Assembly (NCBI GenBank): GCA_964425745.1
Contig: CAYRNW010000012.1
Location: 250 to 64,249, forward strand
DNA length: 64,000 bases
Direction of reading: 5' to 3'
Origin: an uncultured Eubacteriales bacterium
Lineage (GTDB): Bacteria; Bacillota; JAAYKD01
Of the stretch, positions 6,001 to 27,103 are shown one piece after another. The first letter of the stretch is position 1; each line of letters begins with the position of its first letter. The notes under the pieces were generated by a model. The model was not told the origin of the DNA. It worked only from the letters and a program-made list of their open reading frames with translations, and did no database searches. The translations under genes and the position numbers were made by a program.

Positions 6001-7742
6001 GTAGCTCCATTTATGGGAAGGTATGACCCATTCAGGGTCTCGCTACGAGTCCACTGATACGTAACCGATGCGCCATACGGTGAAACGGTTCCGGCTGTCA
6101 GGGTTTGGAACACCTGGGTAATTCCAATGCTGTCAGCAATGGAAGTAAGAGAGGTTAAGGGCTCTGTATCGGATACAGGCACTACATAACTGCTGTTTAC
6201 CGTTCCGGTATAAGCCCCGGTGCCTGAGACAGAAACTCGAACATACTTGTTAACGTCGGTCGCAGTCAAATCGTAAGTAGAAGTTGTAACACCCAGATTA
6301 CTATAGGGACCATTTGGCGAAGTTGCTCTCTGCCATGAATATACCACGGTCGCTCCTGCTGGTAAAACACTACCGGCTGTTATGGTTCGCCCTTCTACAG
6401 CAGAACCACTAATGTTCCCAATCGATTGCAGTGATCTTGGAGCAATGGGTCCATGAGCATCGCTTTCTTTGCTACCGGAATACGACCCGGAACCAACGGC
6501 AATTACCTTTAAATAATCTCCGACATCATCAGGAGCAATGGTATAGGTTTGGTTCGCAGCTCCACTGATGAGGTTCCATGGCTCATTACCATCTTCCGAT
6601 TGATACCACTGATACGATGCAGTAGCTCCAACGGGTTCTAAAACACCTGCTGTGACTGTTTGCCCCACTTGAGCACTTCCTACGATGGTGCCAATAGATT
6701 GTAAAGATATACCTGCCGCTGCAGCTACAACCCGTCCACTACGAACTGAAGTCACGCTCCCGGAATATTCCCCGGTAGCCGTTGCCACCACACGTAAATG
6801 ACGATTGAGATCATTTAATTCAGCCGGTTCATCATCTGGAACGTAAGTAGGCGAATTAGCACCAAGAATATCTGTATAGATACTTCCTGAAAGGTCGGAG
6901 CGCTGCCATTGATACGTTACTGTTGACCCCAAAGGGGTTACAGTTCCCGCAGTAAGGGTTGTCCCAATTGTGGTCGTTCCCATAATGGCACCTATACTGG
7001 TAATTGGTGTCTTACTGCTTCGTATAGGGCCCAATTCTGCATAGACCGTATTACTGTAGGTATTGGAGCCGGTGGCATAGACTCGAACAAACTTATCCAC
7101 CATGCTTTCTGTTAGTGATAAGCTGTTCGTGGCTGCACTGCTAATATTGCTGTAATCTCCATTCATAGAATCGGCTATTTTCCACTGATAGGTTGCTGTT
7201 GCTACAGAAGGAGTTAACGCCCCTGCAAAAAGTGTTTGACCGGTTATGGGTTCTCCAACTATATTGGCGATGCCTGTAATGGGTGTCGCAGCAACAACAA
7301 CGGGACCTGCCTCAGCACTATAGATGGTGTTGATGTAATCACCGGTACCTTTTGCTGCAACGCGAATGTATCTGTTGTTATCATCGAAAACCAAGGTGTA
7401 TTTTTCCTGATTCGCTCCGGGGATGTCAATAAATACACCAGTTCGCGAATTCGCTCTTTGCCACTGGTAAGTAAAAGTCGCTCCACTTGGCAACACAACC
7501 CCAGCTGTTAGTTCTTCGTATTGTTTGGTTGTTCCGGAGATGTTCCCAACCGATTCCAATCGAAGCCCCATATTTCCAGAGACAAAGGACAATTCGGTCT
7601 GAATCGTATCGAGGACATACTTCGAAGCTGTAGGGCTCGAGGCAATGATTGCCGTAACTAATACTGTAGCAAGTAAGATTAATGCGAATAAATTATTAAG
7701 AGGTATAGAAGATTGTTGAACGTTCTTTCGTTTAAGTCTCAC
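1..7742 (-). CDS. Giant secreted Ig-like repeat protein B (putative adhesin), partial: 3' end lies beyond the left window edge; at least 2580 aa
   Basis: Not in the ORF track because it has no stop inside the window. GTG at 7742 follows SD GGGAGG. N-terminus reads MRLKRKNVQQSSIPLNNLFALILLATVLVTAIIASSPTASKYVLDTIQTELSFVSGN. Manual translation at ~7500, ~2050 and 3-120 stays in one frame and is paralogous to 8049..15695. About 20 YQW-type repeats are followed by APV/Big/AIR9-like modules. Confidence 0.92.
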   Translation of the reverse strand, partial: MRLKRKNVQQSSIPLNNLFALILLATVLVTAIIASSPTASKYVLDTIQTELSFVSGNMGLRLESVGNISGTTKQYEELTAGVVLPSGATFTYQWQRANSRTGVFIDIPGANQEKYTLVFDDNNRYIRVAAKGTGDYINTIYSAEAGPVVVAATPITGIANIVGEPITGQTLFAGALTPSVATATYQWKIADSMNGDYSNISSAATNSLSLTESMVDKFVRVYATGSNTYSNTVYAELGPIRSSKTPITSIGAIMGTTTIGTTLTAGTVTPLGSTVTYQWQRSDLSGSIYTDILGANSPTYVPDDEPAELNDLNRHLRVVATATGEYSGSVTSVRSGRVVAAAAGISLQSIGTIVGSAQVGQTVTAGVLEPVGATASYQWYQSEDGNEPWNLISGAANQTYTIAPDDVGDYLKVIAVGSGSYSGSKESDAHGPIAPRSLQSIGNISGSAVEGRTITAGSVLPAGATVVYSWQRATSPNGPYSNLGVTTSTYDLTATDVNKYVRVSVSGTGAYTGTVNSSYVVPVSDTEPLTSLTSIADSIGITQVFQTLTAGTVSPYGASVTYQWTRSETLNGSYLPINGATAKTLVLTGADKGYFFKVIATGSGSYTGSVTSRFAGPIATAPLTAIGTISGTASVTSVLTAGAVTPADATVIYQWLISDTNGENYLPIAGATSDIYVVSNDDIGRFIKVQVTGTNLYSGIRLSTFSGPVLAQPVEVTAIGAINGYPQIGQTIQAGVTNPIGATVTYQWKRADFAVGPYTSISGATTSSYTTTYQDLNKHLILTVYGAGTYYTNIGGVSSPPFGPIVTRPITSISNVIGKAQVGQVLTAGTVLPVGAEVNYQWQYYNGTTYVNIVGETSNTYMISTDVNNRFIRVSVTGKNGYSDTLYSNNTGPVGSPNAISSISDITGVTRVGQTLSAGVVLPHGSTISYQWLRSAEVDGTYEAIVGATYSQYTLTENDQAKYMKVIATGFGTYFGEVISSPTDFISKGIISQVLAPQGQTIVNQTLVAGSITPVGASVSYQWQRNDGSGFQDIPSATLNSYLLTTTDEGKTIRLVVTGTGSYEGSYESPATNIISASGTTLIALNSITNTTGTATVGQNLTIGSVDPGAATYTVQWQRSDSAGTNYTNIPGATSSTYTLTAADYNFYVRPVVTGTGIYTDTKTGSNLLVTGRQSIVSVGNITGSTNVGGTVTSGPVVPEGANVTYQWRRHKYSPLLGWQIETIDDANSYYYTTTEDDQDHFIDVIVSAASGSAYSGGATSQKFGEINSSPYKVVAIADITGSTRVGSLLTAGNTTPYGASITYQWLRKSPGAETYSEIPGATSKTYLLQASDYNSILKVVATGSGGYTGWVESAPTSQIQPSNLSSISSIVGTTVVSQSLHAGTVIPLGATVNYQWLKSNTSGTDFVEVSGATKAAITLTEDDLNCSFKVQVTGVGAYTGSRLSDSVGPVVESSAIELTSIGAFTGTLRVNSPLTVNKDTLSPAGAQATIQWQRGVEEDGPFQDIPGATETSYTLTVDDYLQYIRVKAVGAGAYSKEVYSGVQGPIQPCIITGIGEWSGSLRIGQSLVAGVPIPADATVSYKWEINIAILGWTDTGITTNSVLIPEKLGLLNWKTVNRQIRVTITGTGAYSGSQQKTIGYILEEEPVNPLTSIGAIQGTTSPGQTLTAGTVLPLGATVTYQWQRAMNPQDTFENIAGATNNQYMVQESDLGMYFKVVATGSGSYSGTVTSSVKGPVVGFGEAIPILAISDILYTTKASNITLTAGVVTPLGAEVTYQWYKSNTTIPTGEYTAIEGATSNAYTFADSEAEDYYFKVEVTGSESYSGTIMSNYTGPVTLSPTALTHVDIGGIIQVGETLTAANLLPEGATATYQWQVFTAADGVYADIPGATSSSYALQPNQYNYYMKVIATGSGAYTGQVSAQTDTVVIGLIESPVISMVAPVVGATPQTTSQVEGVNSSVDFVVTNVVWNEPMTPLGKFNTDTSYSATVTMESKNMKTFVPSFAPIVSGSSSISDITVSDTGVVGNTVEFTVNYDATEPLKVSSLTILSQPTKLSYTEGSDDVLDLSGLEFTELYNDGSTATVSFASGTPAGYETSPMNGSALTGDNHLYEVSITHTDSNVTIGTAPLSVEAPPKATNVSILGELVKGETLTGYYVYSDVNGDEVDTDSTYYEWIVDSVSVSSGAGSSYLTYLLTAANAGKTVFFKVTPVAERGTLTGSVVSSAESLPVATSALSAATVNMTTPVVGATPENSGDVETLTSDPNFTVSSLSWSPALTTGGKYAADTAYTATITLTSKNGTAFSATPFRPSIVGASTISNTVRSGNGAGNTVTFLAEFPATVALQLVSIEATTQPSKLVYKEMTEILSLVGLVITETYNDGSTVVVEFIDGVAIGFNASPANGSTLTAALHNGQPVTITHDATLQTTETATLTVTEQHAPVASNVSISGTLRVGQRLDGSYEYSDDDLDGEGATSYQWYADDEAIPGATSTTYTLTTNERGKTIRFQVTPVASAGITPGSAVLSSPTTTILQTIDIAAISGITAPSWKNTPDSTVNETDQYIATIAWLSPPTLRNDGTFR

Positions 7743-7808
7743 ACATCCTACCTCCCGACGTCAGCACACATTTAGCTTGAATGCATAAATTTCTATAGGC
7801 GGAACAAT

Positions 7809-7912
7809 AAAAAAACCGACCGCATTCCTGCGGTCGGACGGTCATCACTTCAACAGTGTTCAGACTCCAGACTTTGCGTCCTACTCTTTCAAGTAGTTTG
7901 CCAATAAACATC
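7809..7912 (-). ncRNA. c-di-GMP-I (GEMM) riboswitch with overlapping intrinsic terminator
   Basis: Minus strand reads GGCAAACTACTT-GAAA-GAGTAG-GACGCAAAGTCTGGAGTCTGA...ATGACCGTCCGACCGCA-GGAA-TGCGGTCGG-T7. It has the GGCAAAC, GAAA tetraloop, GACGCAAA and tetraloop-receptor motifs of class I. Confidence 0.9.
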
Positions 7913-7939
7913 ATAATTTGTCAAATTTAATCTGCCGAT

Positions 7940-7968
7940 ATTGTAACTTCTATTCAGACATATGTCAA
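7940..7968 (-). promoter_or_regulatory. Sigma-A promoter for giant protein B
   Basis: TTGACA (7968-7963), 17 nt spacer, TACAAT (7945-7940), directly upstream of the riboswitch. Confidence 0.8.
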
Positions 7969-8002
7969 GTATAATTTTTCACAAATTTCGAATTTTGCAA
8001 AC

Positions 8003-8035
8003 AAAAAGCCATCTCTTGATTTGAGATGACTTTTT
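8003..8035. terminator. Intrinsic terminator after giant protein A
   Basis: AAAAAGCCATCTC...GAGATGACTTTTT hairpin with A/T tracts on both sides, 14 nt past the stop at 8049. Confidence 0.75.
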
Positions 8036-8048
8036 ATTTTTTACTTAC

Positions 8049-11000
8049 TTAATTAGGAACCACTGCTTCAGTCGGATCACTCTGAACGGGATTACCTGGT
8101 GTTAGTCCAGTTGCTGCAAACGGTGTAACTTCAAAGCGAATCACCTTTCCTACATCACCGGCTTGCACCACATAGGTAGTTGTCGTTGCACTTGGTATTT
8201 CAACTGCATCTGCGTACCATTTGAAGGTGGATGTTCCTTGTGAATCACTGTTGGCGTCATAATATTCGTAAGACCCATTCAAGGGTTGTCCTACTTGAGC
8301 CGTTCCGCTGATGCTTACAGAACTTGCTACCGGTGCCACCTGCGCTTGTACCGCAAGGTTGCTGGTCGTAGCTGTTTTGGATGAGTCTGTGTGGGTGATT
8401 GTTATTGGTTGCCCATCATGATCTGCATTCGTCAATACAGTTCCATGAGCCGGATCAGCGGTATACCCTGCTGCTACTCCATCGGTAAAGGGGACTTGAA
8501 TTTGTGACCCATCGTTATGAGTAGCGGTAACAACTAAACCGTTAAGGGATAAGGTTGCATCCGTCATTTCAACATAGCTCATATCGGAGGGAGGTGCTTG
8601 AATGCTTAAACTATCAACCGCCAAAGCTCCGGTTTGCGGAAAGGAAACTGTGAAGGTAACCGTATTACCAATACCCAATCCGCTGGTGGTTGTAGTTCCT
8701 ACTGAACTCGCAGTTGTCACCGTGGGTGTAAAGAAAGTCCATTGGAACGTAGAATCATTCTTAGATGTCAAGGTGACCGTCGCTGTATACACCGTGTCCG
8801 CTTTGAATTTTCCAGCCGCAGTCAACGCTTCGTTCCAGGTAAGACCCGTTACCGTATAATCGTCATTTGCAGTTTGGGTTTCTACATTTTCTAGAGTATC
8901 GGGTGTAGTACCTAAGACCGGAGCAACAATGTTTACCGAAGCACTGGTGATGGTATTCGTTGCAACCGGTAAGGTTGTAGTGCTTGTAACCGCAGCACCG
9001 GTTGAACTTCCGCTTGCCGCAGCAGGGGTGACTTCTAAGAGAACCGTTTTACCGATATCGGCTGCTGTCAATGTATAGCTTAAATAACTACTTCCCGCAC
9101 CAGCAGAAACCGATACTGAGTCGATAAACCATTCATAATATGTAGTATCCGTATCTTCTGCATCACCGTTGACATCATAGTAGGAGTAGTTTCCTGTTAG
9201 TGCCGAATTTGCCGCTGCAGTCCCTGTTATAGTAACATTGCTCGCACTGGGTGGAGCTTCTACGAAGAGGTTGGCGGTAGTTGCTGTTTTCCCCGAAGCC
9301 GTATGAGTGATAGTCACGGAGCTATCGTGCTGAGCTCCCGTGAGGGTAGATCCATCTTCTGGAGAAGCGGTATATCCTGCTGCAGTGCCATCGGTGAAAA
9401 TTGTTGTGGTAATAGTACCATCATTGTTGGTTTCAGTAACCACCATTCCATCGAGTGCCAAAACACCATCGGTAGTTTCTACATAGACTAATTTGGTCGG
9501 TTGGGTTGTTACAGAGATAGAGGTTGGCATGAGAGCCCCGGTTGGTGCAAAGGTAGCAGTGAAGGAGACTGTATTTCCCACATCGCTACCGGAGGTGGTG
9601 GTCGTGCCAACCGAAGCTGCACTGGCTACCATGGGTGTAAAGGGAGTTGAAACAAAAATCTTGGTATTCTTGGAGGTCAAGGTCACGGTGGCAGTATACG
9701 CGGTTCCTGCTTTGAATTTTCCAAGGGGAGTTAATGCTTCGTTCCACACGAGGCCCGTCACTTCATAATCCGGATGATTGGTAGTGCTTTGCACCTGAGC
9801 TGCTGTTTGAGGAGTGGCCCCCAAAACTGGAGAAGCCATCGTAACTTGAGCCGAACTCAACAAGCCAATAATCTTGGATGTGGTATCTGCAAATTTAGAC
9901 CCCGTATATGCTCCACTACCGGTTGCAATCACCCGAACATAGTAGTTATATTGAGCTGGTTGCAGTGTATAGGTAGAGCCTGTTGCACCCGGTATGTCGG
10001 CGAAAACTCCTCCGGGACCGGTAAAGACTTGCCATTGGTAGGTTGCAGTTGGGTATGTGTCACCTGGCCATAAATTCTCAGCGGTTAAATTCACTGCGGA
10101 TAACGTCTCTCCCACTTTGTTAATCCCACTTACTTGGACACTAGTTAACTCTTCAGGTGTAACTACTACCGGTCCGGTTGCATTGCTTAAAGCCGTTCCG
10201 GAATAGCTACCTGAGCCGGTAACTTCTACTTTGAAGTAAGATCCCAAAGCTTGGTTCACCGGGATTGTATAAACACTGGATGTGGCTCCTGAAATGTTCG
10301 AGTAGGTTCCACCGAGTGAAGATGCAACCTTCCACTGATAAGTTACCGTTGCTCCCATGGGAGATACTGTTCCGGCAGTCAAAGTTAATTGCGGGACCGT
10401 TGTGTATAAGATATCCGATATAGAAGCAATTTGTATAAATGAACCGGAGGAAATAACCGGTCCGGTGGATGCTGAAGTCAATACCCCTGAATAATTTCCT
10501 GTTCCAGTAGCAACAACCCTCAAGTAGTAGTTCAAGTCCCCCGCTGGAATGGTATAACTGTTCGTTGTAGCACCCGCTATGTTCTGGAATGTTCCACTTG
10601 GAGTTAAACTTCTTTGCCATTGGTAATCTACAAATGCTGAAGCTCCGCTTGGTGTTATTGCACCGGCTGTTAAGGTTTGACCAACTGCTGAAGTACCAAC
10701 AATTGAGCCCATGGCTTCCAGCGTTTCTAAGGAACTATATGCTACGATATCTACGGTAGTTCCAGTCGTTCCTAGCGTTCCGGTATAAGCTCCCGTTCCG
10801 GTGATAATGACACGAATATCCCGTCCCACCGTGGAAGCATTATTTCCGGGTTGCCTGTCTGGAATCAATACCGACTGTGTTGAAACACCGATATTGTTCC
10901 AGCCTCCGCCTCCGCCTCCGCCTTGAGAAATCTCCCATTGGTAAGTCACCGTTGCTTCTGCAGGGTCAATGGAGAACGCAACCAAGGATTGATTGACTGA

Positions 11001-14000
11001 TTGCTCCCCTGCCGGGGTATATTCTCCAACTCTTGTTATGGGCCTTTTCCCAATCTGAGCGGTGGCATTTGATCTGAATACTCCACCAAAATTCCCGGTA
11101 CCAGCAATCTCGACCTTAATATACTTTAGATAATCTTCTACCGTTGTATAATATGTAGAAGCTGTAGCTCCGGGTATGGGGATATAAGTACCCCCAGAGG
11201 TATTTGATCTATACCATTGGTACGTCACAGTTGCTCCGCTTGGCGAGACCGACGTGGCGTTCAACGTCCGATTCACTTGGAATCGATTTCCGGATTCGGT
11301 TATCACCACATTCGTAACACTCGTCAGAGGGGTGTCTATCACTGGACCAATAGCACTACTTGTGATGGTGCCGGTATAGAAACCCGTTCCTTCTACCTTC
11401 ACTTTGATATAAGAAGTTAGATCCTCGGTTGTTAAGGTATACGTTTCTGTATTGGCTCCATCAATGGCTGAATAACTACCTTCCAGAGTCGAAGCTCTCA
11501 TCCATGTATAGGTTGCAGTTGCCGATACAGGGGTAATCGCTCCCGCCGTTACAACTGAGCCAACCGTTCTACTCCCACTTATAGAAGACAACGCAGCTAA
11601 AGCTCCCTTACCGATGAGTGAAGTCGGTTCACTCTCGGCCCAGCCATAATACCCTCCCGAACCTGTAATTACGACCTTTAAATAATGGTTAAAATCTTGA
11701 TCCGTCAAACGATACGTTGAAGCAGTCGCACCTAAGATTGCTGAATACGTCTCGGCATTGGCTGCGCGACGATACCATTGATATGTTACCGAAGCACCAA
11801 AAGGAGTGGTTGTTCCTGCGCTCAATAAGTTGCTTACGGTTGGATCTCCTACGATAGGACTAATCGCCGTGATTTTGCTTGGGTCTTCTTTCAGGGGACC
11901 GAAGAAATAACTATCGACTGAACCAGTGAATCCTTTCGATTCATCCCCACTGACTCTGACTTTGTAATAATATTTCTCTTGACCTGTAGGAGTTGTGAAC
12001 TCGTCTGGAAATTTGTAATAATAGTCTGTTGCTCCGGTTATATCGTAAAAGGTAGCTGTTAATGGAGTTCTAGAACTGGTATACATCCACTGATAGGTAA
12101 CAGCGGCACCAGCAGGAGTTACTTCTCCGGCGAGCACTAACTCACTTAGAGCCGGTGTACCAATAATGTTTGCAACAGCTGTTATGGTTTGCATTCCCGT
12201 TACTAGCCTGCCTGTTACGGTTACGACACCTGTATAAGCTCCTGTTCCGGTTACCACGGGTCGAACGTACTTCTCAAAGTCATTTGCTGTTAAAACGTAG
12301 GAAGTATTAATGGCACCGCTGATGTTGCTAAAGTTGATATTATCTTCCGATCGTTGCCATTGAACACTATAGGTTGCACCGCTCGGTCCTACGGTACCGA
12401 TTGTAACCGTATCCCCTACCGATAAGGTTCCACTTGGAGTGAATCCTCCCATGGTGATCGTTTGCGGGACTGTACCACTGGGTTGAATCGCAAGAGTTGG
12501 TTGACTTTCAGCGGTTCCTTCATAGGAGCCGGTTCCGGTCACAAATAACTTAATTGTTTTCCCTAAATCATCTTCCGTCAGTAAATAACTACTCAGCGTT
12601 GCTCCGGGAATGTTGGTATAAGAAACCCCATCACTGCTTCGCTTCCATTGATATGTTACCGTGGCACCCACCGGAAGAATCCCACCGGAAGAAAGGGGTT
12701 GACCAACAATTGTTTGTCCCAAAATATTGCCCACAGAATCCACGGTTCCCAACATGATTTTATCGGTTGCATTACTTCTGACTTCATCGTAATACAACCC
12801 AAATCCGGTTGCTATAACTCTCATGTACTTGTTGTGGTCTGCACCGGTCAATGTATACGTCTTTTGAGTAGCTCCCGAAATCGCCTCGTAAGTACCATCG
12901 ATTTCTCCCGAACGTAACCATTGATAAGAAACCGTTGCTCCATAGGGGAAGACGACCCCGGCGGTTAAGATTTGACCCACTTGGGTTATACCGGTGATAT
13001 CACCTATGCCTTGAATCAAATTAGGATCTCCGGTTACGACCGGTCCTGTACTAATACTCGAAACGGTGTCAAAATAACCCTGATTACCCGTGACTGAAAC
13101 TTTGATACTCTTACCAAGATCAGCAGAGGTTATGATATATGTATTTGAAGTCTCTCCAACAATACTCGTATTATCGCTATACTTCCATTGATACGAAACA
13201 TTTGCACCGATTGGAAGTACTGTTCCTGCGGTTAACACTTGGCCCACTTGCGTCTTACCGATGACATTCGATATAGATTCGAGTGGTCGAGCCAGAACAG
13301 GACCAAAGAAAGCACTCGTAATTCCGCTTGGGGGGGTTGCATAAACTCCGGATCCCCAAACCGTCACTTTAAAGTACTTGTTTAAGTCCGCTGCTGTTGT
13401 GGTGTAAGTAGCTGAATTCGCACCACTAATTGCTGTATACGGTCCTCCGCTTACGTCGGCTCGTGACCATTGGTAGGTTACTGTTGCACCTAAAGGTGTC
13501 GTGTTTCCGGCTGTTAACATTTGACCCACTTGAGCGGTTCCACTAATAGTACCTACTGCAGTGATATTGGTAGGGGTAAGAACCACCGGACCAGAATATT
13601 GGCTTGTGACAGTTCCACTGTATAAATTGATTCCCGTGGCTTGAACTTTAATGAATAAACCGATGTCCGTCTCTGTCACTTGATACGTATTCGAATTTGC
13701 TCCTGCAATCGGGATATAGTTTTCACCATTGATATCTGATCGTAACCACTGGAAGTTCACAGTTGCTCCCGAAGGTAATACGGTGCCAGCAGTCAGAAGC
13801 TGACCGTTCGTTGCTGTTCCACTAATATTGCTAATGGACATCAAAGGAGCCGCAGTAATCGGTCCGGCATATCTACTTGTGACGGATCCGGTATATAATC
13901 CTGAACCTGTAGCGGTAACTTTGAAGTAAAATCCTTTGTCTGCTCCTGTTAGTACCAATGTTTGAGAGGTTGCACCTGAAATAGGTAAGTATATCCCATC

Positions 14001-15695
14001 CATCGAACTACTCTTCAACCATTGATATGTTACAGTTGCACCATAAGGGGAAACCGTTCCTGCTGTCAAAGTTTGAAATACCTGAGTTAAGCCAATACTA
14101 TCTGCAATTGAAGATAGATGGGTAAGTGTAGTCCCAGCGGCTGAGGGAACAATGTATTGACTTAGCACTGTACCATTATAAGCACCGGTTCCGATTGCTG
14201 CCACACGAATATAGGTATTGACATCGGAAGCACTCAAGGTATAGGTACTACTATTTGCTCCAATAACGGTGTATGATCCACTAGGATTCGTCGTGCTATA
14301 TCTTCTCCACTGATAATCTACCGTCGCTCCACTCGGTAAAACGGTACCGGCTGTTACAACTTGCCCTTGTATTGCGGAACCACTAATATTTCCAATGGAT
14401 TGTAATGGCATAGCAGCCACAGGTCCGAGAGCATTGCTGTCTAACGTGCCGGTGTAAGATCCGGAACCCGTCACAGTAACTCTAAGATGCTTTCCAAAAT
14501 AACTAGCTGCTATGGTATAGGTATTACCGGTTGCACCAGATATTATGTTCCATGGAGCACTTCCGTTATCGGAAAAATACCATTGATACGAGGCAGTTGC
14601 TCCACTAGGAGCAAGCGCTTCTACCGTAAGAGTCTGTCCTACTTGTGCCGTGCCGGTTATCGTTACAGGTGCCGTTAGAGAAATACCTGCTGTTACTACC
14701 GGTCCACTTCGTACCGAAGTGACCGTTCCAGAATAATCCCCGGTTCCGGTAGCAACGACTCGTACATATCGGTTTAGGTCTTCTGGATTCACTGGCACAT
14801 AGGTGGAACTCGTTGCACCTTCAATGTTGCTAAAAATACTACCACTGGTATCGGATCGTTGCCACTGATAGGTCACCTCTGCTCCTGAGGGAGTCAAAGG
14901 TCCCGCAGTTAAAGTATTCCCAATGGTGGTGGTTCCAACAATGGGGTCAAGATCGGTGATTTGAATTTTATCGCTGATAATAGGACCCATGCTGGCAAAT
15001 TCAGTTCCACTATAGGTGTTTGACCCGGTTGCATAGACACGCACAAATTTATCGATCATGGATTCGGTTAACAAGAGCGTGATATTGGTCGCTCCACTTA
15101 TATTGACGTAAGTCCCATTGAGAGTATCGGCAATCTTCCATTGGTAGGTAGCGGTGGCACCGGTGGGAAGCAAGCTGCCCGCAGTGACCGTTTGTCCTAC
15201 TACCGCATTGCCCTGGATAGCACCCATGGACTCCAAATCTATGGCGGCAACGACAACCGGGCCAACTGTAGAACTGTAAACAGTGCCGGAATACTCTCCG
15301 GTTCCTTTGACTGCGACTCGAATGTAATGATTATTGTTCTCAATATCCAAGTAGAACGTTTCTAACGTCGCATCAGGAATATCAATAAATTCTCCCTCCA
15401 GAGAATTGGCTCGTTGCCACTGTATCGTATAAGTGGATTCTTCATCCGTTACTACAGTGGCAGTCAATGTCTCATACTGGCGGGTTGTGCCTAATATGCT
15501 AATCTCCGCAACAAGTTCTTGTGCAAAATCAGCGGAGAAGAATGTCAAATCTGCCCCAACCGAATCCAAAACATATTTCGACAAAGAGGGACTGGAAGCA
15601 ACAAAAGAAACGATGAGTACAGTAGAAGTAAGCAGAAGCCCTAAAGCTCTGCCAAGTTTTGAAGAATGGTTGATCACCGTTCTACGTAACCTCAT
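8049..15695 (-). CDS. Giant secreted Ig-like repeat protein A (putative adhesin), 2548 aa
   Basis: SD AAGGAGG then ATG; hydrophobic signal ending SLS|KY. Twenty ~90-aa repeats (G-x-L-T-A-G...P-x-G-A-T-V-x-Y-Q-W...I-x-G-A-T...Y...D...Y-x-x-V...G-T-G-x-Y-x-G) resemble AIR9/A9-type Ig folds. Then 2x [APVLGATP domain + bacterial Ig group-3-like domain + AIR9-like domain]. No C-terminal LPXTG, SLH or TM segment. Confidence 0.92.
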   Translation of the reverse strand: MRLRRTVINHSSKLGRALGLLLTSTVLIVSFVASSPSLSKYVLDSVGADLTFFSADFAQELVAEISILGTTRQYETLTATVVTDEESTYTIQWQRANSLEGEFIDIPDATLETFYLDIENNNHYIRVAVKGTGEYSGTVYSSTVGPVVVAAIDLESMGAIQGNAVVGQTVTAGSLLPTGATATYQWKIADTLNGTYVNISGATNITLLLTESMIDKFVRVYATGSNTYSGTEFASMGPIISDKIQITDLDPIVGTTTIGNTLTAGPLTPSGAEVTYQWQRSDTSGSIFSNIEGATSSTYVPVNPEDLNRYVRVVATGTGDYSGTVTSVRSGPVVTAGISLTAPVTITGTAQVGQTLTVEALAPSGATASYQWYFSDNGSAPWNIISGATGNTYTIAASYFGKHLRVTVTGSGSYTGTLDSNALGPVAAMPLQSIGNISGSAIQGQVVTAGTVLPSGATVDYQWRRYSTTNPSGSYTVIGANSSTYTLSASDVNTYIRVAAIGTGAYNGTVLSQYIVPSAAGTTLTHLSSIADSIGLTQVFQTLTAGTVSPYGATVTYQWLKSSSMDGIYLPISGATSQTLVLTGADKGFYFKVTATGSGLYTGSVTSRYAGPITAAPLMSISNISGTATNGQLLTAGTVLPSGATVNFQWLRSDINGENYIPIAGANSNTYQVTETDIGLFIKVQATGINLYSGTVTSQYSGPVVLTPTNITAVGTISGTAQVGQMLTAGNTTPLGATVTYQWSRADVSGGPYTAISGANSATYTTTAADLNKYFKVTVWGSGVYATPPSGITSAFFGPVLARPLESISNVIGKTQVGQVLTAGTVLPIGANVSYQWKYSDNTSIVGETSNTYIITSADLGKSIKVSVTGNQGYFDTVSSISTGPVVTGDPNLIQGIGDITGITQVGQILTAGVVFPYGATVSYQWLRSGEIDGTYEAISGATQKTYTLTGADHNKYMRVIATGFGLYYDEVRSNATDKIMLGTVDSVGNILGQTIVGQPLSSGGILPVGATVTYQWKRSSDGVSYTNIPGATLSSYLLTEDDLGKTIKLFVTGTGSYEGTAESQPTLAIQPSGTVPQTITMGGFTPSGTLSVGDTVTIGTVGPSGATYSVQWQRSEDNINFSNISGAINTSYVLTANDFEKYVRPVVTGTGAYTGVVTVTGRLVTGMQTITAVANIIGTPALSELVLAGEVTPAGAAVTYQWMYTSSRTPLTATFYDITGATDYYYKFPDEFTTPTGQEKYYYKVRVSGDESKGFTGSVDSYFFGPLKEDPSKITAISPIVGDPTVSNLLSAGTTTPFGASVTYQWYRRAANAETYSAILGATASTYRLTDQDFNHYLKVVITGSGGYYGWAESEPTSLIGKGALAALSSISGSRTVGSVVTAGAITPVSATATYTWMRASTLEGSYSAIDGANTETYTLTTEDLTSYIKVKVEGTGFYTGTITSSAIGPVIDTPLTSVTNVVITESGNRFQVNRTLNATSVSPSGATVTYQWYRSNTSGGTYIPIPGATASTYYTTVEDYLKYIKVEIAGTGNFGGVFRSNATAQIGKRPITRVGEYTPAGEQSVNQSLVAFSIDPAEATVTYQWEISQGGGGGGGWNNIGVSTQSVLIPDRQPGNNASTVGRDIRVIITGTGAYTGTLGTTGTTVDIVAYSSLETLEAMGSIVGTSAVGQTLTAGAITPSGASAFVDYQWQRSLTPSGTFQNIAGATTNSYTIPAGDLNYYLRVVATGTGNYSGVLTSASTGPVISSGSFIQIASISDILYTTVPQLTLTAGTVSPMGATVTYQWKVASSLGGTYSNISGATSSVYTIPVNQALGSYFKVEVTGSGSYSGTALSNATGPVVVTPEELTSVQVSGINKVGETLSAVNLTAENLWPGDTYPTATYQWQVFTGPGGVFADIPGATGSTYTLQPAQYNYYVRVIATGSGAYTGSKFADTTSKIIGLLSSAQVTMASPVLGATPQTAAQVQSTTNHPDYEVTGLVWNEALTPLGKFKAGTAYTATVTLTSKNTKIFVSTPFTPMVASAASVGTTTTSGSDVGNTVSFTATFAPTGALMPTSISVTTQPTKLVYVETTDGVLALDGMVVTETNNDGTITTTIFTDGTAAGYTASPEDGSTLTGAQHDSSVTITHTASGKTATTANLFVEAPPSASNVTITGTAAANSALTGNYSYYDVNGDAEDTDTTYYEWFIDSVSVSAGAGSSYLSYTLTAADIGKTVLLEVTPAAASGSSTGAAVTSTTTLPVATNTITSASVNIVAPVLGTTPDTLENVETQTANDDYTVTGLTWNEALTAAGKFKADTVYTATVTLTSKNDSTFQWTFFTPTVTTASSVGTTTTSGLGIGNTVTFTVSFPQTGALAVDSLSIQAPPSDMSYVEMTDATLSLNGLVVTATHNDGSQIQVPFTDGVAAGYTADPAHGTVLTNADHDGQPITITHTDSSKTATTSNLAVQAQVAPVASSVSISGTAQVGQPLNGSYEYYDANSDSQGTSTFKWYADAVEIPSATTTTYVVQAGDVGKVIRFEVTPFAATGLTPGNPVQSDPTEAVVPN

Positions 15696-15745
15696 CGGTG
15701 CCCCTCCTTTCTTTGTTTTGTTAGGCCGATTGACTGCGGAAGAAG

Positions 15746-16261
15746 CTAATCGATTTGTTCCGCGTTAATGGTAATACGAATGGTCTGAGTTTTATTTGCA
15801 TATTCACTTCCTGTTTCTAATTCGTTCCAAACGATATTGAGCGTGTAGCTGTGAGTGATGTTTTCACCCATTCCTAAAATTGTCCAACCGTCTCCATCAG
15901 AAGGATACGATCCTACTAAGTTCTTAGTTAATGGTAGCACGTTTTCTGGCTCAACACTCACTTCAATCTTATATCTCAACAGAACCTCGTTCCTTATCTC
16001 GATCAAGTCCTCATTCTTAAAGTTACGAATTTGAAATTGATAAGCTACGGCATCCCCCGGCTTCACATTTTCAAAAGAAAGGCTTTCTTGCTGTAACCCA
16101 TTATACGTAGCTATCCCCGGAACATACTCCAGTACAGGCTTTGCAACCCTAGCCGTATCGGTTCCGTCGACTATGGTTCCATATTTCGAAAAGGATACGC
16201 CTGTCACCACGAGAGTGACAATAATTAGATAGACTAAATATAAAGGTAGCATTCGCCTCAT
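15746..16261 (-). CDS. SipW-cognate exported protein, TasA/camelysin-like minor subunit (putative)
   Basis: Signal ...VTGVSFS|KYGTIVDGTDTARVAK shares GTDTARVAK exactly with 18407..19234. It has VKPGD-x-x-x-Y-x-F and a C-terminal IRITINAEQ strand, and lies next to sipW. Confidence 0.75.
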   Translation of the reverse strand: MRRMLPLYLVYLIIVTLVVTGVSFSKYGTIVDGTDTARVAKPVLEYVPGIATYNGLQQESLSFENVKPGDAVAYQFQIRNFKNEDLIEIRNEVLLRYKIEVSVEPENVLPLTKNLVGSYPSDGDGWTILGMGENITHSYTLNIVWNELETGSEYANKTQTIRITINAEQID

Positions 16262-16285
16262 TTATCACAACCACATTTCTATTGC

Positions 16286-16789
16286 TTAAGAGTTTGATTT
16301 TCGTTTGTTGAGAAGATTGGGGACTTCCACCAGTGCAATCGCCGTTAGGGCAATCAATAGCAACCCGAAGGGAGTCTTCAAAAATAGTATAAAATTACCA
16401 AATCCCGGTATGGTGAAAACCACTTTCCCGTTAATTAGAGCTAATGGTGTTGGCTCATCGGTCGTATTGTTAGCATCGCCCTTGGTAATCATCTGGTCTC
16501 CTTCTATGGAAACGATACGATGTGTACAAAGACTGTTACCCCATTCATAGGTGACGATGTCACTGACCTGGTATTGGTTTTGCTCACGGATGATCAGCAA
16601 ATCACCTGCTGAAATCGTCGGTTCCATGCTTCCGGAGATGACAATGACTTGGCCGAATCCAAAAATGGTGGGCAACTCTTGTTTGAAAACTAACTGCATA
16701 GTAAGTAGATAAAGGTTACCGATCAAGATTATCGCAAGCATAGCTACTACAATTTTCTGACCGATACTTAAGATTTTATTCAAATTCAT
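16286..16789 (-). CDS. sipW: Signal peptidase I, SipW (S26B, ER-type)
   Basis: ISGSMEP (catalytic Ser), THRIV (His general base rather than Lys), TKGDANN; N- and C-terminal TM segments. Confidence 0.92.
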   Translation of the reverse strand: MNLNKILSIGQKIVVAMLAIILIGNLYLLTMQLVFKQELPTIFGFGQVIVISGSMEPTISAGDLLIIREQNQYQVSDIVTYEWGNSLCTHRIVSIEGDQMITKGDANNTTDEPTPLALINGKVVFTIPGFGNFILFLKTPFGLLLIALTAIALVEVPNLLNKRKSNS

Positions 16790-16804
16790 CGCATTCCTTA
16801 CCCG

Positions 16805-18265
16805 TTATTGTCCCGTAATCAAGATTTCTAAAATATACATGGGCGGATCGATTTGATTGCCTATGGCGGTATCGAGGGTGTTATTGGAAGCATCCCACTC
16901 CCACTCCAAGGTATAATACACCGAAGAGCTACGGGGTAATTGTGCAAACTCTACGATCTCAGATGCGGTTCTCCAAGCATTCCCACCTACATAATCATCG
17001 CCCACGATTCCTCGTTTTAATCGGTAAATCATGGGAATATTGGGCACGTTTGCATCGGAATCCTGAAGATCTATGGTGATATCTACATCAAACATTTGCG
17101 GATTACGGATTTTGAAAATAAATTTCCCATTGGATCCTGGAGCAATGACATTCTTTCCGTCAATACTCTGAACACCGTTGTTTCCTGCTCTCGGTGCAAA
17201 GATATCGACCGAGGTTACTTTCTGCCAAGTGCGACCGATCATGGTGTAATCATCGGAAACATAAATCCGAGGAGTCGTATCTTCTGGTGGATCCGGAGGT
17301 GGAGGCGGAGGTGGAGGCGGAGGGGGCGGATCAACTGGATCCGTTGGATTTGTTGGATCAGTGGGGTCTTCCGGATCTGTCGGGTCGGTTGGATCCGTTG
17401 GGTCCGTAGGATCTGTAGGATTGGTTGGATCTTCTGGTTCAATGGAACCACCTGGATTATCTGGATCGACCGGATCTTCAGGCTCTACAGGTTCTTCCGG
17501 ATCTGTCGGGTCCGTTGGATTGGTAGGATCAGTGGGGTCGGTCGGGTCTTCAGGTTCAATGGAGCCCCCAGGTTGATCCGGATCGTCTGGGTCTGCAGGG
17601 TTTACAGGATCCGTTGGACTAGTAGGTGTTTCAAAATCATTATCGAAGTCAAACTTGATAACTAAATCATCTCTGTTCTCTTCCCCTATACTAGTTCCGT
17701 TTTCTCTATTTGGGTCGATTTCTAAAATCACATTCAGAACTTGGACCTCTAAGGGGATTCGAATTAAATAACCACCGGCATCGAGCTTAATAATTTGTTT
17801 TACATTAATGAAGGCATCGAGAAGGAAGTTCACTTTGGTTGTTGCAAGAACAACACCATCGCTCACAACGCTAATCGTATGACTACCTTCTTCAACATCT
17901 AAAAATTCGAAACGACCAAGGGAGTCTGTTTCGGTGTAGCGAGGTTCACTACGCAACTCAATTGTGCCGTTGGCATAAGGTGTTCCATCTGTATATTGAA
18001 CGATTCCCACAACGTTAATCTGATAAATCGGCGTTGGATCTGGGGTTACCGTAGGTTGGCCAAAGTCAATGGTGATGGTATCGATAATCTGACCGGTGTA
18101 GTAGTCTCTATAGACGATTCGTCCGATTAAGTAACCAATCATGGAGGAGGTTAACATTAAAGAGAAAACGAGTAAGAGGATGAATCTGCGAAGCCTTCTG
18201 CGACGAATCTGTCCTGTCGTCTCTTCGGCTTCTTCATAGAGCGCTTCTTCCCAAAAAAACCTCAT
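16805..18265 (-). CDS. Membrane-anchored protein: N-terminal TM, carboxypeptidase-regulatory/prealbumin-like domain, Pro/Asp/Thr stalk, C-terminal TasA-like domain
   Basis: RRRRLRR followed by a TM helix; GxVxYTDGTP..RYTETDxxGxFxFxxVxxGxHxI motif; PTD repeats; C-terminal NVIAPGSNGKFIF, YTLEWEW and DTAIG match motifs of the 18407..19234 protein. Confidence 0.75.
   Translation of the reverse strand: MRFFWEEALYEEAEETTGQIRRRRLRRFILLLVFSLMLTSSMIGYLIGRIVYRDYYTGQIIDTITIDFGQPTVTPDPTPIYQINVVGIVQYTDGTPYANGTIELRSEPRYTETDSLGRFEFLDVEEGSHTISVVSDGVVLATTKVNFLLDAFINVKQIIKLDAGGYLIRIPLEVQVLNVILEIDPNRENGTSIGEENRDDLVIKFDFDNDFETPTSPTDPVNPADPDDPDQPGGSIEPEDPTDPTDPTNPTDPTDPEEPVEPEDPVDPDNPGGSIEPEDPTNPTDPTDPTDPTDPTDPEDPTDPTNPTDPVDPPPPPPPPPPPPDPPEDTTPRIYVSDDYTMIGRTWQKVTSVDIFAPRAGNNGVQSIDGKNVIAPGSNGKFIFKIRNPQMFDVDITIDLQDSDANVPNIPMIYRLKRGIVGDDYVGGNAWRTASEIVEFAQLPRSSSVYYTLEWEWDASNNTLDTAIGNQIDPPMYILEILITGQ
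17294..17630 (-). repeat. Imperfect 9-bp (Pro-Thr-Asp) tandem repeats, two GGSIEPEDPT modules and a 12-Pro run within the anchor gene
   Basis: Repeating gga-tc/ggg-tc units are visible in the DNA; the 12 consecutive Pro codons lie at 17294-17329. Confidence 0.9.
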
Positions 18266-18303
18266 ACAGATTCACCTCTCTTCTCGTGCCTTATGTAGAA
18301 TGA

Positions 18304-18339
18304 AACCCCGGCAGCTGGTTATAAACCTTTGCCGGGGTT
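18304..18339 (-). terminator. Intergenic stem-loop after the major subunit gene (partial terminator or mRNA stabiliser)
   Basis: 10-bp stem AACCCCGGCA/TGCCGGGGTT with only a short U tract on the minus strand. Confidence 0.55.
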
Positions 18340-18406
18340 ATTTGTTCCAGCTTCTTAATAACTCACCTGCATAGGGCTCGTTATAGGGGAGCTTAGTTTT
18401 GTTTAG

Positions 18407-19234
18407 TTAGTTGATTTGAGTAGCGGTGATTCGTAAATTCAAGGTCAATGACGGTGCATCATCAGTTAGGAACAAATCTCCCAAATCAGTATCTGCTTTG
18501 TCATAAGCAGCCAACTTAATTGTAGAATGTGGTACAACTACAGTCGCTGCAGAATCAGAATAGTATGTAGTTGCTGGGTTGTAAGGATTAGTGGCCAAAG
18601 TGGCTGGAGCAGTATAATACATAGCCACATTTGCTTTTGCAACTTCAACTTCTGACCAAGCTAAATATGTGCTGGACCATTCAAAAGGCCATTCCCAACC
18701 AATCGTGTAAGTTGTAGCAATCGATGCGTTAGCAATATAATCAACAGTTAATGAACTTAATTCTGATTCTAAGTCTGCCAAAGTGAAATATGTTTTCGCT
18801 CCCCATGCTGAACCAGTCCAGTAATTAGTCCCATTATAAATAGTCCAATTGAGCGGTTCATAAGCCTTAGTTGATACGAGCCAGTTATCCTTTATAGAGG
18901 AAGCTCCAAAAGAAACTCTTACGGCTACTTCAGGAATACCAGCTAAAGTAAAGGTATAACTCCCAGAAGTTCCTGGGGCTACTACATTCTCTGTTGATAT
19001 CACGGAATTTGGACCAAGCATGAAGGTTGCATCATCCTTGACATAAGTTAAGTCAAACATACCATCACCAGCAGAGTCAGCAGTAATGGTCACTCCCCAC
19101 TTCGCCACTCTGGCAGTATCTGTTCCGGTTGCTTCCGTCACATACTTAGCATAAGTGCTGGAAACCATAGGCATCGTCACTAAGGTCAATACCATAGCGA
19201 GTAAGCCTAATCTTAAAACCCAATTTTTTTTCAT
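18407..19234 (-). CDS. SipW-cognate exported protein, TasA/camelysin-like major fibre subunit (putative)
   Basis: SD GGAGGT then ATG at 19234 (ORF track starts at 19249). Signal ...VSSTYA|KYVTEATGTDTARVAKW resembles TasA TWA|AF and CalY TFA|FF. NVVAPGTSGSYTF, YTIGWEW and terminal LRITATQ motifs; directly follows sipW. Confidence 0.8.
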   Translation of the reverse strand: MKKNWVLRLGLLAMVLTLVTMPMVSSTYAKYVTEATGTDTARVAKWGVTITADSAGDGMFDLTYVKDDATFMLGPNSVISTENVVAPGTSGSYTFTLAGIPEVAVRVSFGASSIKDNWLVSTKAYEPLNWTIYNGTNYWTGSAWGAKTYFTLADLESELSSLTVDYIANASIATTYTIGWEWPFEWSSTYLAWSEVEVAKANVAMYYTAPATLATNPYNPATTYYSDSAATVVVPHSTIKLAAYDKADTDLGDLFLTDDAPSLTLNLRITATQIN

Positions 19235-19302
19235 TTTTCTTACCTCCATCTAATTTTTCTATTTGGAGACCGAATTATCGGTCAAATCCCCATGTGTCTT
19301 GT

Positions 19303-19950
19303 TTATTCTTGTTTGGTTGAATCTTCTTTGATAGAATTAGCTTCCAATTGTTGGCGCATGCTTTCCAATTCGGCTTCCAGTTCTTTTGTGCGTTGGGCCT
19401 TCTTGCGTTCAAACAGGGTTCGTCTCAAAATGTCATAAAGGATGAATGATAACAAGGGTAATGCGATGAAGAGTGCCATGCCGACCGGGGTTTGCATAAA
19501 CATGGCAAAGTTGCCCAGTTTTGAGATACGATATAAGTAGACACCTTCGAGTTGTTCTACTGTTACCGGTCTGCGGTCGTTCACGTTGTTGTTATCACCT
19601 TTGGTGATGAAGCGAAGTTCTTGATCTGCTCCCTCAACTTGAACGATTCTGTGTGTAATCACTGCGGTGCCTTCTCTGAATGCAATCACATCGCCGACCT
19701 GAAGGCTATCTGCCTCTACCTCCTTCACCATGACTAAATCGCCTGAATAAAATACCGGTTCCATGGACCCTGTTAAGACAATGAAGGGTTTGTAGCCCAT
19801 GAAGCTGGGCACTTCCTCCGGGTAGAGAAACGACTTTACGATGAGAGTAATGTTTACAACTAAGGCAGGGATGAGAATGATGCAGAGGATGATCCCGAAG
19901 ATGGTTCCGATTCCCACCCTGCTCTTCTTATTGCTCTCCGTTTCACTCAC
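19303..19950 (-). CDS. sipW: Signal peptidase I, SipW (S26B), with C-terminal coiled coil
   Basis: LTGSMEP, ITHRIV, TKGDNN; TM segments; tail KELEAELESMRQQLE. GTG at 19950 follows SD GGGGG (ORF track uses TTG at 19971). Confidence 0.9.
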   Translation of the reverse strand: MSETESNKKSRVGIGTIFGIILCIILIPALVVNITLIVKSFLYPEEVPSFMGYKPFIVLTGSMEPVFYSGDLVMVKEVEADSLQVGDVIAFREGTAVITHRIVQVEGADQELRFITKGDNNNVNDRRPVTVEQLEGVYLYRISKLGNFAMFMQTPVGMALFIALPLLSFILYDILRRTLFERKKAQRTKELEAELESMRQQLEANSIKEDSTKQE

Positions 19951-20001
19951 ATATAAAACCCCCTGTTCCAAAGTTTGTTTTGAATACTCCGGCAGCTAAT
20001 T

Positions 20002-20112
20002 AAAAAAAGTCCGACCGCAAGAAGATTGCGGTCGGACGATCATGACACAATTTTGTGCTTTAGATTCCAGACTTTGCGTCCTATTTTTTCAAATAGTTTG
20101 CCAAAAGTTAAA
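20002..20112 (-). ncRNA. c-di-GMP-I riboswitch with overlapping terminator, upstream of the sipW operon
   Basis: Minus strand reads GGCAAACTATTT-GAAA-AAATAG-GACGCAAAGTCTGGAATCTAA...ATGATCGTCCGACCGCAA-TCTTC-TTGCGGTCGGAC-T7; nearly identical to the copy at 7809. Confidence 0.9.
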
Positions 20113-20150
20113 TTCAATTTTGATTCTATGACGTTTAGTTCCTTACTGAG

Positions 20151-20179
20151 ATTGTATATCAGTTGAGAATAAAAGTCAA
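20151..20179 (-). promoter_or_regulatory. Sigma-A promoter for the sipW operon
   Basis: TTGACT, 17 nt spacer, TACAAT. Confidence 0.7.
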
Positions 20180-20330
20180 TAGAATCTTGTGTAAAGTTCT
20201 AGAAAAATTTTCTGCATCCCCTGCTTTTTTTGTAACCTACTCTCAATAGGCCTTTTTGTATAACTCCCTACAAATTCTCCAGTGAATTGGTATTTCCTTC
20301 CTCAATTTTTGAAAATTTTGAAAATATTTT

Positions 20331-21035
20331 TCAAATCGTACTTTGCTGATCTTTACGAAATGTAGCTGGCGGTTGCCCTACCGTTTGAGCAAAAGCACGG
20401 GTAAACGCAGCCGGGTTCTGATACCCCACTTGTAAAGCAATTTCGAGCATGGAATACTGCGTTGTCAGCAACAATTCCTTGGCTTTTTCCATGCGGACTT
20501 TGCGAATGTATTGTCCCGGACTAATTCCGGTTTGATGTTTGAACCATTCATTATAATAAGAAAGATTATAATTTTCCAATTTCGCCAGCTGGGAAACGCT
20601 AATATTTTCATCGTAATGCTCCCTTATATAACGAAGGGAGTCGGGTCTGTGGTATTCTACGAGTTTATCGTACAAATAGTAAAACAAATAGCGAATTGTG
20701 TTGCCGGTTGGACCGTTAGAAATCTCGTCCTTGATCAGTTCAATTAAATTTACGAGCGGTCCTAAGACCGGGAAAACGATTTGATTGGTCAAACTCTGCA
20801 TGTCTTCTTTCTTGATCATATCGGGCGGGATGTTGATAATCAAGACTCGATTTTTACACAAACACAAATGTTCGATGTTCGGTGGAATAAAAGCAAGTTC
20901 ATTCGTACGAATCATATGGGTAGAACCATTGCAATAAAGTTCTAACGTATCATTCAAGGGCAAGAAGATCTGAGCATGTTCATGTTTGTGACGTTCCGAA
21001 GAGTCACTTAAAATGTAACAATCAAGCTTTGTCAT
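20331..21035 (-). CDS. AraC-family transcriptional regulator
   Basis: Cupin-like N-terminus (HKHEHAQ); C-terminal double HTH with YIRKVRMEKAKELL and IALQVGYQNPAAFTRAF. Confidence 0.92.
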   Translation of the reverse strand: MTKLDCYILSDSSERHKHEHAQIFLPLNDTLELYCNGSTHMIRTNELAFIPPNIEHLCLCKNRVLIINIPPDMIKKEDMQSLTNQIVFPVLGPLVNLIELIKDEISNGPTGNTIRYLFYYLYDKLVEYHRPDSLRYIREHYDENISVSQLAKLENYNLSYYNEWFKHQTGISPGQYIRKVRMEKAKELLLTTQYSMLEIALQVGYQNPAAFTRAFAQTVGQPPATFRKDQQSTI

Positions 21036-26940: not shown

Positions 26941-27016
26941 TGGTAGCGGAGGTCGGATTTGAACCAACGACACAGCGGGTATGAACCGCTTGCTCTGCCA
27001 GCTGAGCTACTCCGCC
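26941..27016 (-). tRNA. tRNA-Met(CAT), elongator type
   Basis: GGCGGAGTAGCTCAGCTGG...CGGTTCATACCCG...GGTTCAAATCC...CTACCA cloverleaf. Confidence 0.92.
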
Positions 27017-27026
27017 AAGAGTAAGA

Positions 27027-27103
<77 letters not shown>

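Follow-up and report, generated by a model that had tools for sequence, protein, structure and literature searches.

In Bacillus thuringiensis BMB171, the riboswitch Bc2 lies upstream of cap, which encodes a collagen adhesion protein, and c-di-GMP (cyclic diguanosine monophosphate) raises read-through into this adhesin gene (PMC4933901); the control of CbpA is related to the Bc2 system (PMC7423583). In Geobacter metallireducens, pilM is served by a GEMM-Ib ON switch whose aptamer and terminator are mutually exclusive, with C75, the equivalent of C92 in the Vc2 riboswitch, pairing with G102 of the terminator (PMC9262584). The OFF switch Cd1 is built with a separate terminator that coexists with its aptamer (PMC9262584). 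Here, we describe two riboswitches of the c-di-GMP-I class, A and B, on the minus strand of a 64,000-nucleotide (nt) stretch of DNA from an uncultured Eubacteriales bacterium (contig CAYRNW010000012.1), referred to below as the window. Switch B heads a six-gene operon and switch A precedes a second giant adhesin gene, and both are probably wired as ON switches.

An Rfam scan of the whole window returned two full-length matches to RF01051 (c-di-GMP-I, GEMM-I), both on the minus strand. Aptamer B lies at 20112-20024 (63.4 bits, E = 4.5e-10) and aptamer A at 7912-7826 (61.5 bits, E = 1.3e-9); each covers model positions 1-87 of 87, and the scores exceed the gathering score of 35 by 26-28 bits. 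The model for class II c-di-GMP riboswitches gave no match at its gathering threshold anywhere in the window. A sequence-only reading had already placed a pair of c-di-GMP-I riboswitches at 7809-7912 and 20002-20112, positions that the search bears out and to which the minus strand has to be added. It had also reported a G at the G20 equivalent of each copy, which is indeed there (7902 in A, 20102 in B), and had called the copies near-identical. This description holds for the core, since the junction, the P2 frame, the P3 base and the terminator arms are identical between the copies, but not for the whole aptamers, which agree in 69 of 94 aligned columns (73%), with most of the divergence in the distal P3 hairpin and in the flanks. 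Over the stretch that begins with the -35 hexamer and ends with the U-tract, the two units are about 70% identical. Finally, a GUC..GAC pairing had been taken for the closing helix; the pairing is real in both aptamers but belongs to the base of P3 (G50-U51-C52 with G87-A88-C89), not to a closing P1 helix.

Alignment to RF01051 places the other ligand-contact nucleotides as well: A47, which intercalates, is an A in both copies (7875 in A, 20075 in B), and C92 is a C in both (7830 in A, 20028 in B), all on the minus strand. G20 pairs with G-alpha of the ligand and C92 forms a Watson-Crick pair with G-beta (PMC6140456, PMC11705072); the position-20 G contacts the Hoogsteen face of G-alpha (PMC6140456). 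Vc2 numbering was transferred through the model alignment and cross-checked with the residues G20/G21, G42, C44-G83, C52/U53/G87, U90 and C92 in PMC11705072. The inter-helix pair C44/G83, whose role in the c-di-GMP-I aptamer is described (PMC6140456, PMC11705072), is kept in both copies, with its C in GGACGC and its G in the CG bulge. P2 is a 6-bp stem with a GAAA tetraloop in both, and the tetraloop receptor region in P3 reads CUAAA in B and CUGAA in A, a one-base deviation. Judged by these sequence features, both elements are genuine c-di-GMP-I aptamers. Neither A nor B has an adenine at the G20 equivalent, the hallmark of GEMM-Ib switches for 3',3'-cyclic GMP-AMP (3',3'-cGAMP). With G20 in both copies, the expected ligand is therefore c-di-GMP and not cGAMP.

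Each aptamer runs into an intrinsic terminator on the minus strand. Terminator B has a 12-bp stem with 8 G-C pairs at 20037-20009, followed by U7 to 20002, and reads GUCCGACCGCAA-UCUUC-UUGCGGUCGGAC, then U7, with a 5-nt loop (hairpin -23.0 kcal/mol). Terminator A has a 9-bp stem with 7 G-C pairs at 7837-7816, followed by U7 to 7809, and reads CCGACCGCA-GGAA-UGCGGUCGG, then U7 (hairpin -17.8 kcal/mol). Their 5' arms lie inside the aptamer 3' ends, at 20037-20026 in B and 7837-7829 in A. The common 5' arm, CCGACCGCA (extended to GUCCGACCGCAA in B), corresponds to aptamer positions 85-93, which comprise the P3 3' strand (85-90), G91, the ligand-pairing C92 and A93. When 7000-21000 was scanned for the terminator consensus, nine terminator-like sites came up where 12.6 are expected by chance, and the two strongest sit exactly at the aptamer 3' ends. 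Weak matches of the terminator regions to small RNA families (Hrs13 and others) were far below gathering and were rejected as terminator look-alikes.

The terminator stem takes up C92 and the P3 3' strand, so that it cannot form while the aptamer is bound to its ligand, and all that the ligand can do is counter termination. We thus consider it likely that A and B are transcriptional ON switches for c-di-GMP, a direction that we infer from structure. The sequence-only reading had noticed the shared terminator arm and proposed ON wiring; the identity of the arm was recovered in both copies, and the wiring is supported by this anatomy and by the conservation of the overlap described below.

Promoters of the sigma-70 type were found by scanning about 30-40 nt upstream of each aptamer, again on the minus strand. 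The promoter of switch A (7968-7940, TTGACA-17-TACAAT) matches the consensus at 11 of 12 positions and is the best promoter-like site scanned, with a predicted start at ~7933. That of switch B (20179-20151, TTGACT-17-TACAAT) matches at 10 of 12, with a predicted start at ~20144. From predicted start to U-tract, the leaders are about 125-145 nt long.

Folding calculations agree with competition between the two structures. The ligand-free minimum-energy fold of both full leaders contains the terminator, and transcripts that lack the terminator 3' arm fold as P2 and P3. When the folding of the growing transcript was followed, P3 flipped to the terminator once the last 3-5 nt of the 3' arm had been added. 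Computed without a ligand term, leader A has -26.7 kcal/mol when constrained to the aptamer versus -32.2 kcal/mol with the terminator, and leader B has -25.1 versus -37.7 kcal/mol. Tight ligand binding could plausibly bridge the resulting gaps of 5.5 and 12.6 kcal/mol.

We propose the following mechanism, in which ligand binding, the direction of the response and its threshold are inferred. Each unit would act as a self-contained head of a transcription unit, in which a sigma-70-type promoter is followed by a GEMM-I aptamer and an intrinsic terminator. At low c-di-GMP, the terminator 3' arm would invade P3 as it is transcribed, and the G+C-rich hairpin with its U7 tract would end the transcript some 120-140 nt from its start. 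At high c-di-GMP, the ligand would fix G20, A47, C92 and the base of P3 in place ahead of the synthesis of the 3' arm; the terminator would be unable to nucleate, and RNA polymerase would read through. Switch B would then turn on the six-gene operon, and switch A the divergent adhesin 2 of 2632 amino acids (aa).

The leader design is conserved in relatives. P0001, the secreted protein encoded next to the first signal peptidase gene (sipW) of the switch B operon, has homologues at 38-45% identity on other metagenome contigs (numbered here with the prefix L), with the same gene order and RF01051 matches at the heads. A single switch stands at the operon head in L002/L003 and L004, and a tandem pair in L005 and L007. 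Seven homologous leaders from five loci (L002, L004, L005, L007, L011) keep the overlap between aptamer and terminator, which reads CGUCCGACCGCAA-loop-UUGCGGUCGG, then a U-run, in all seven; promoter hexamers occur at the position equivalent to promoter B in the leaders of the same five loci. When these seven leaders were aligned with window copies A and B, 92.7% of the aptamer cells were paired, versus 14.5-43.8% when partners were slid by 1-3 columns. Compensatory changes, on both sides of the pair, affect three pairs of P2 and P3, in 10 cells. The terminator cells were paired in 95.4% of cases, and the 5' arm was invariant; one mismatch weakens the terminator stem in L005b, L007a and L007b. 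Two other operons, on contigs of the Ruminococcus/Acutalibacteraceae type with shorter subunits (L008, L010), had no GEMM-I match at the gathering threshold, so the association of operon and switch is not universal in the wider family.

Close strains sampled in four DNA metagenomes vary in the P3 loop, one P3 G-C pair that becomes G-U, the U-tract and the flanks. None of the variants in these four metagenomes falls in the common arm, and they give no covariation test of the terminator.

We also scanned the metagenome contigs without regard to terminators, using a 20-mer from the aptamer 5' half as the query. This gave 61 matches in 56 loci; five of the matches were not aptamers. In 22 of the 61, a hairpin of at least 8 bp with a U-run starts in the aptamer 3' strand; others have a hairpin beside the Shine-Dalgarno sequence and no U-run (e.g. 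L031, L054, L055). Behind the aptamers with overlapping terminators lie genes for type IV pilins (L019, L030, L035), SipW peptidases (L040, L043, L065) and secreted proteins, which fits an ON role for surface structures.

Several arrangements among these loci deserve mention in their own right. At L011, the unit (4612-4700) sits after the first sipW and about 300 nt before the P0001 homologue; since it is 3' of sipW, the peptidase escapes riboswitch control there. L005 (9589-10698) and L007 (8545-9624) carry a GGDEF plus HD-GYP (HD_5/HD) gene flanked by those of the small secreted protein and the giant adhesin, an arrangement that places a c-di-GMP enzyme under a c-di-GMP switch in a possible feedback loop; the window operon, unlike those two, has no such gene. 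The two aptamers of the L007 tandem (4102-4188 and 4308-4394) differ at position 20, with A in the first (UUUAGCAAAC) and G in the second; they might respond to separate cyclic dinucleotides or combine a bispecific with a specific aptamer. An Acutalibacteraceae contig (L009, 3872-3964) has a divergent c-di-GMP-I match of 49.9 bits with an overlapping terminator. It reads UGUAAAG and GGCACAAUG where others have GGCAAAC and GACGCAAAG, and it may be a variant with altered binding-site nucleotides. Aptamers of L027, L046, L048, L050 and L063 have the same core and read AAACGCAAAC, which puts a C at the G20 position; these C20 aptamers are often tandem, with overlapping terminators, ahead of secreted proteins. 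On the short metagenome contig L040 (888-1363, minus strand), three consecutive aptamer-terminator units precede a SipW-like gene.

Environmental RNA documents read-through at switch B. One wastewater metatranscriptome contains a 953-nt contig that covers 20127-19176 with ~98.7% identity, begins ~17 nt downstream of the predicted start and, after aptamer B and the terminator, continues across sipW into P0001. It shows that transcripts reading through the terminator are present in situ and makes the call of promoter B plausible. RNA contigs of P0001 have depths of 15-56, higher in three runs, numbers to be read with care as contig depth is a poor expression measure.

A number of points weigh against the ON-switch reading. 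P1, which lies outside the RF01051 model, amounts to at most ~2 A-U pairs in both aptamers. Position 90 is C and not U, with an A49/C90 mismatch flagged in both alignments and C90 in all nine leaders. P1 length influences ligand binding in Vc2 (PMC11705072), and with the short P1 and C90 the aptamers could have low affinity. Terminator B, at -23 kcal/mol, is very stable, and fewer than 25 nt separate the complete aptamer from the complete terminator, which makes switching efficiency uncertain. Across the nine leaders, the terminator shows conservation without covariation, as expected for a strand under double constraint. No RNA contig of leader A was found in four metatranscriptomes, in which contigs cannot reveal short terminated leaders, and scanning the window for GGDEF motifs found none. 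Class alone does not predict ON, as class I switches of Clostridioides difficile act OFF (PMC6200980).

The first alternative builds on some of these points: the aptamers may be degenerate or weakly binding and the leaders constitutive attenuators, with regulation left to the promoters, for example through the AraC-family regulator encoded at 20331-21035. Apart from the near absence of P1 and the C at position 90, it draws on the 12.6 kcal/mol by which terminator B is more stable than the aptamer fold, on the AraC-type gene that is kept beside the operon in L002, L004 and L011, and on V. cholerae, where c-di-GMP also works via promoters upstream of Vc1 and Vc2 (discussed in PMC6200980). Decay of the aptamers is hard to reconcile with ligand-contact nucleotides and a tetraloop that are all intact, with compensatory changes that keep the aptamer helices paired across distant relatives, with RF01051 scores so far over gathering and with a core that strain-level variants spare. 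Together, these observations indicate selection on a working aptamer, and we regard constitutive attenuation as unlikely.

The second alternative concerns the ligand, which could be another cyclic dinucleotide such as 3',3'-cGAMP, or both. Position 20 is no absolute rule, since Bc2 has A at this position and yet responds to c-di-GMP (PMC4933901), and the first aptamer of the L007 tandem carries A20. Both window copies, however, have G20; Vc2 with G20 binds c-di-GMP at picomolar levels versus ~10 µM for cGAMP, cGAMP switches found in nature have an A there, and the mutation G20A gives a bispecific RNA (PMC6140456). In addition, the homologous operons of L005 and L007 encode the GGDEF/HD-GYP protein. 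We find a different natural ligand very improbable. Least probable of all is that the leaders work as OFF switches, or that their target is translation or mRNA stability instead of termination: although C. difficile class I switches were uniformly OFF in reporter assays, and CD630_19900 was the only class I-linked gene to rise with c-di-GMP in RNA-seq (PMC6200980), and same-group metagenomic aptamers (L031, L054, L055) carry the Shine-Dalgarno-adjacent hairpins, we rejected this reading because an OFF switch needs a terminator that forms alongside the bound aptamer, which is impossible for one that uses C92 and the P3 3' strand, and because we found no second terminator or helix masking the ribosome-binding site (RBS) between the U7 tracts and the start codons of A and B, with the RBSs 40-50 nt past the U tract.

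The genes behind the two switches all lie on the minus strand. The switch B operon encodes two signal peptidases, three secreted or membrane proteins and an immunoglobulin (Ig)-repeat adhesin. Its first gene (19971-19303; likely start GTG at 19950, RBS GGGGG) encodes a SipW/archaeal-type signal peptidase I with a TIGR02228 score of 111.8 bits, and a second such peptidase is encoded at 16789-16286 (77.1 bits; cut-off 51.85 bits). With the strict SipW equivalog NF046067, the two peptidases score 100.7 and 60.9 bits, below the cut-off of 190. P0001 (19249-18407), a secreted protein of 280 aa with 2137 homologues and no Pfam family, is the candidate major fibre subunit. A membrane-anchored protein of 486 aa (18265-16805) combines a CarboxypepD_reg-like domain with a long Pro/Asp/Thr spacer; the spacer, of ~130 residues with DPT/NPT/EPE repeats and a terminal run of 12 prolines, separates this domain from a C-terminal beta-rich domain. 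P0002 (16261-15746) is a secreted protein of 171 aa that has the N-terminal motif KY..GTDTARVAK in common with P0001. The last gene (15695-8049) encodes giant adhesin 1, of 2548 aa, with a ZirU_fam match of 412.8 bits and AIR9/SCAB-Ig repeats. A weak hairpin with a T-run marks the operon end at 8040-8008 in the minus-strand sequence; the scan gave the same hairpin on the plus strand, at 8010-8028. Under switch A, giant Ig-repeat adhesin 2 occupies 7742-3 and runs off the window (2632 aa in full per cluster P0134); it is a transcription unit separate from the switch B operon and is 53% identical to adhesin 1.

The AlphaFold model of P0001 has a mean predicted local distance difference test score of 74.9, and its top Foldseek match is the TasA fibre 8aur, a weak one (E = 2.8e-3, template-modelling score 0.25-0.29). 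P0001 had no Pfam or NCBIfam match, including Peptidase_M73/TasA; a PDB profile search with its family gave nothing significant, and a search of genome contigs gave only a spurious 31-residue match in an archaeal metagenome-assembled genome. The terms assembly operon and appendage, which the sequence-only reading used for this locus, rest on the SipW-type peptidases and on a weak TasA-like fold signal. The label fibre assembly operon is thus reasonable but unproven.

All four secreted proteins (P0001, P0002 and both adhesins) have a motif (S/A)-K-Y-(V/G) just past the hydrophobic core of the signal peptide, in stretches at 18407-19249, 15746-16261, 15550-15695 and 7600-7742 of the minus strand. 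It continues as GTDTARVAK in P0001 and P0002 and as SKYVLD in both adhesins; among 21 family members, K35, Y36 and D44-K50 are invariant. This common motif may be a recognition site of the two SipW-type peptidases.

The second adhesin and its switch set the window apart from its relatives. Relatives have one adhesin after the operon, of either of two types. Window adhesin 2 groups with the adhesins of L002 and L011 (69-78% identity; 78% with the L002 operon adhesin), and window adhesin 1 groups with those of L004 and the L043 contig (60-65%). The window genome holds both types, and the extra adhesin has its own promoter-aptamer-terminator cassette. A second riboswitch before a second giant gene was absent in the three syntenic relatives checked downstream (L068, L069, L070): L068 and L069 have one adhesin only, then ftsH, and L070 has a second giant gene with no Rfam match in the 557-nt gap before it. 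Dispersed copy A is lineage-specific and not conserved in these relatives; it is present in close strains represented in further metagenomes, from sludge, bioreactors, landfill, wastewater and groundwater.

Taken over all loci, the unit occurs singly, as a tandem pair, as a triple, after sipW instead of before it, and, in the window's lineage only, dispersed before a second adhesin gene of another allelic type. We offer, as a tentative idea that we think rather doubtful, that it is a copyable cassette dispersed in this lineage, and that the two copies provide two c-di-GMP thresholds and a graded two-step attachment programme. The differences in terminator strength (9 bp and -17.8 kcal/mol in A versus 12 bp and -23.0 kcal/mol in B) and in folding gap (5.5 versus 12.6 kcal/mol) are such that two thresholds could be set. 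If so, less c-di-GMP would suffice for the free-standing adhesin than for the assembly operon and the adhesin that it encodes.

Other features of the window were noted in passing. The AraC-family gene lies just upstream of the switch B operon. Further upstream, a PilB-like ATPase gene (22118-23602, minus strand) is split over three frames (residues 1-145, 146-258 and 320-560, with ~60 unmatched) and is either a pseudogene or an assembly error; the corresponding gene is intact in L002, L004 and L011 (MshEN plus T2SSE, 560 aa). MshEN domains are c-di-GMP receptors. A thiamine pyrophosphate riboswitch (39622-39731, plus strand, 68.3 bits) precedes a gene whose start is at 39730, and there are three tRNA genes (26944-27016 and 27030-27103 on the minus strand, 27242-27314 on the plus strand).

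These results amount to a testable prediction of c-di-GMP targets in an uncultured Clostridia lineage of anaerobic digesters, namely a SipW-dependent operon and two Ig-repeat adhesins of ~2,500 aa, the latter being likely attachment or granulation factors in sludge. They suggest that ON control of adhesion genes, a task of class II switches in C. difficile, is in this clostridial lineage also wired through class I switches. A single leader design is conserved throughout an operon family that is widespread and unannotated (2137 homologues for the subunit family alone), and the short self-contained leaders would be convenient parts for c-di-GMP reporters. The understanding of how c-di-GMP-I switches work is unchanged by these two examples.

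The window system most resembles Bc2, in which a class I aptamer is also followed by an intrinsic terminator to make a transcriptional ON switch that acts by repression and de-repression, and a large surface adhesin of a Gram-positive bacterium is also the target. It differs in having G20 and ~20-30 nt ahead of the aptamer, where Bc2 has an A at the G20 position, a 76-nt pre-aptamer leader and a single target gene; the window targets are a SipW-type multi-gene operon and a separate adhesin in an uncultured Clostridia-type bacterium. B. thuringiensis also has a triple-tandem c-di-GMP-I arrangement. Relatives of the window locus likewise carry tandem units of this leader type (two in L005 and L007, three in L040), whereas the window units lie 12 kb apart and head two different transcription units. 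With pilM, the window switches have in common a terminator stem that sequesters the ligand-pairing C, a very short decision window and a surface appendage, putative in the window, as the target; pilM has A at position 20, responds to cGAMP and belongs to a proteobacterium, unlike the G20 switches described here.

The class I switches of C. difficile, such as Cd1, have the same aptamer class and also come from Clostridia (PMC6200980, PMC9262584), and the C. difficile c-di-GMP regulon also includes adhesins, pili and flagella. Unlike those of the window, they act OFF through a separate terminator and antiterminator, and ON control of adhesins and pilA1 falls to class II. The operon itself is comparable to tapA-sipW-tasA of B. 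subtilis and to CoCoPALM loci (PMC11090510), in which a dedicated SipW-type peptidase is likewise found with secreted beta-rich substrates, and P0001 has the TasA fibre as its top, if weak, fold match. It differs from both in that it has no Peptidase_M73/TasA Pfam match and no McrBC pair, and in the presence of giant Ig-repeat adhesins. We know of no riboswitch control of tapA-sipW-tasA, and our literature search returned no paper linking SipW-type operons to a c-di-GMP riboswitch. The aptamer class, the ON mechanism and the control of adhesin genes by c-di-GMP are thus already known; what this locus adds is a leader design conserved within an unannotated family of clostridial operons, together with a lineage-specific second copy before a second adhesin.

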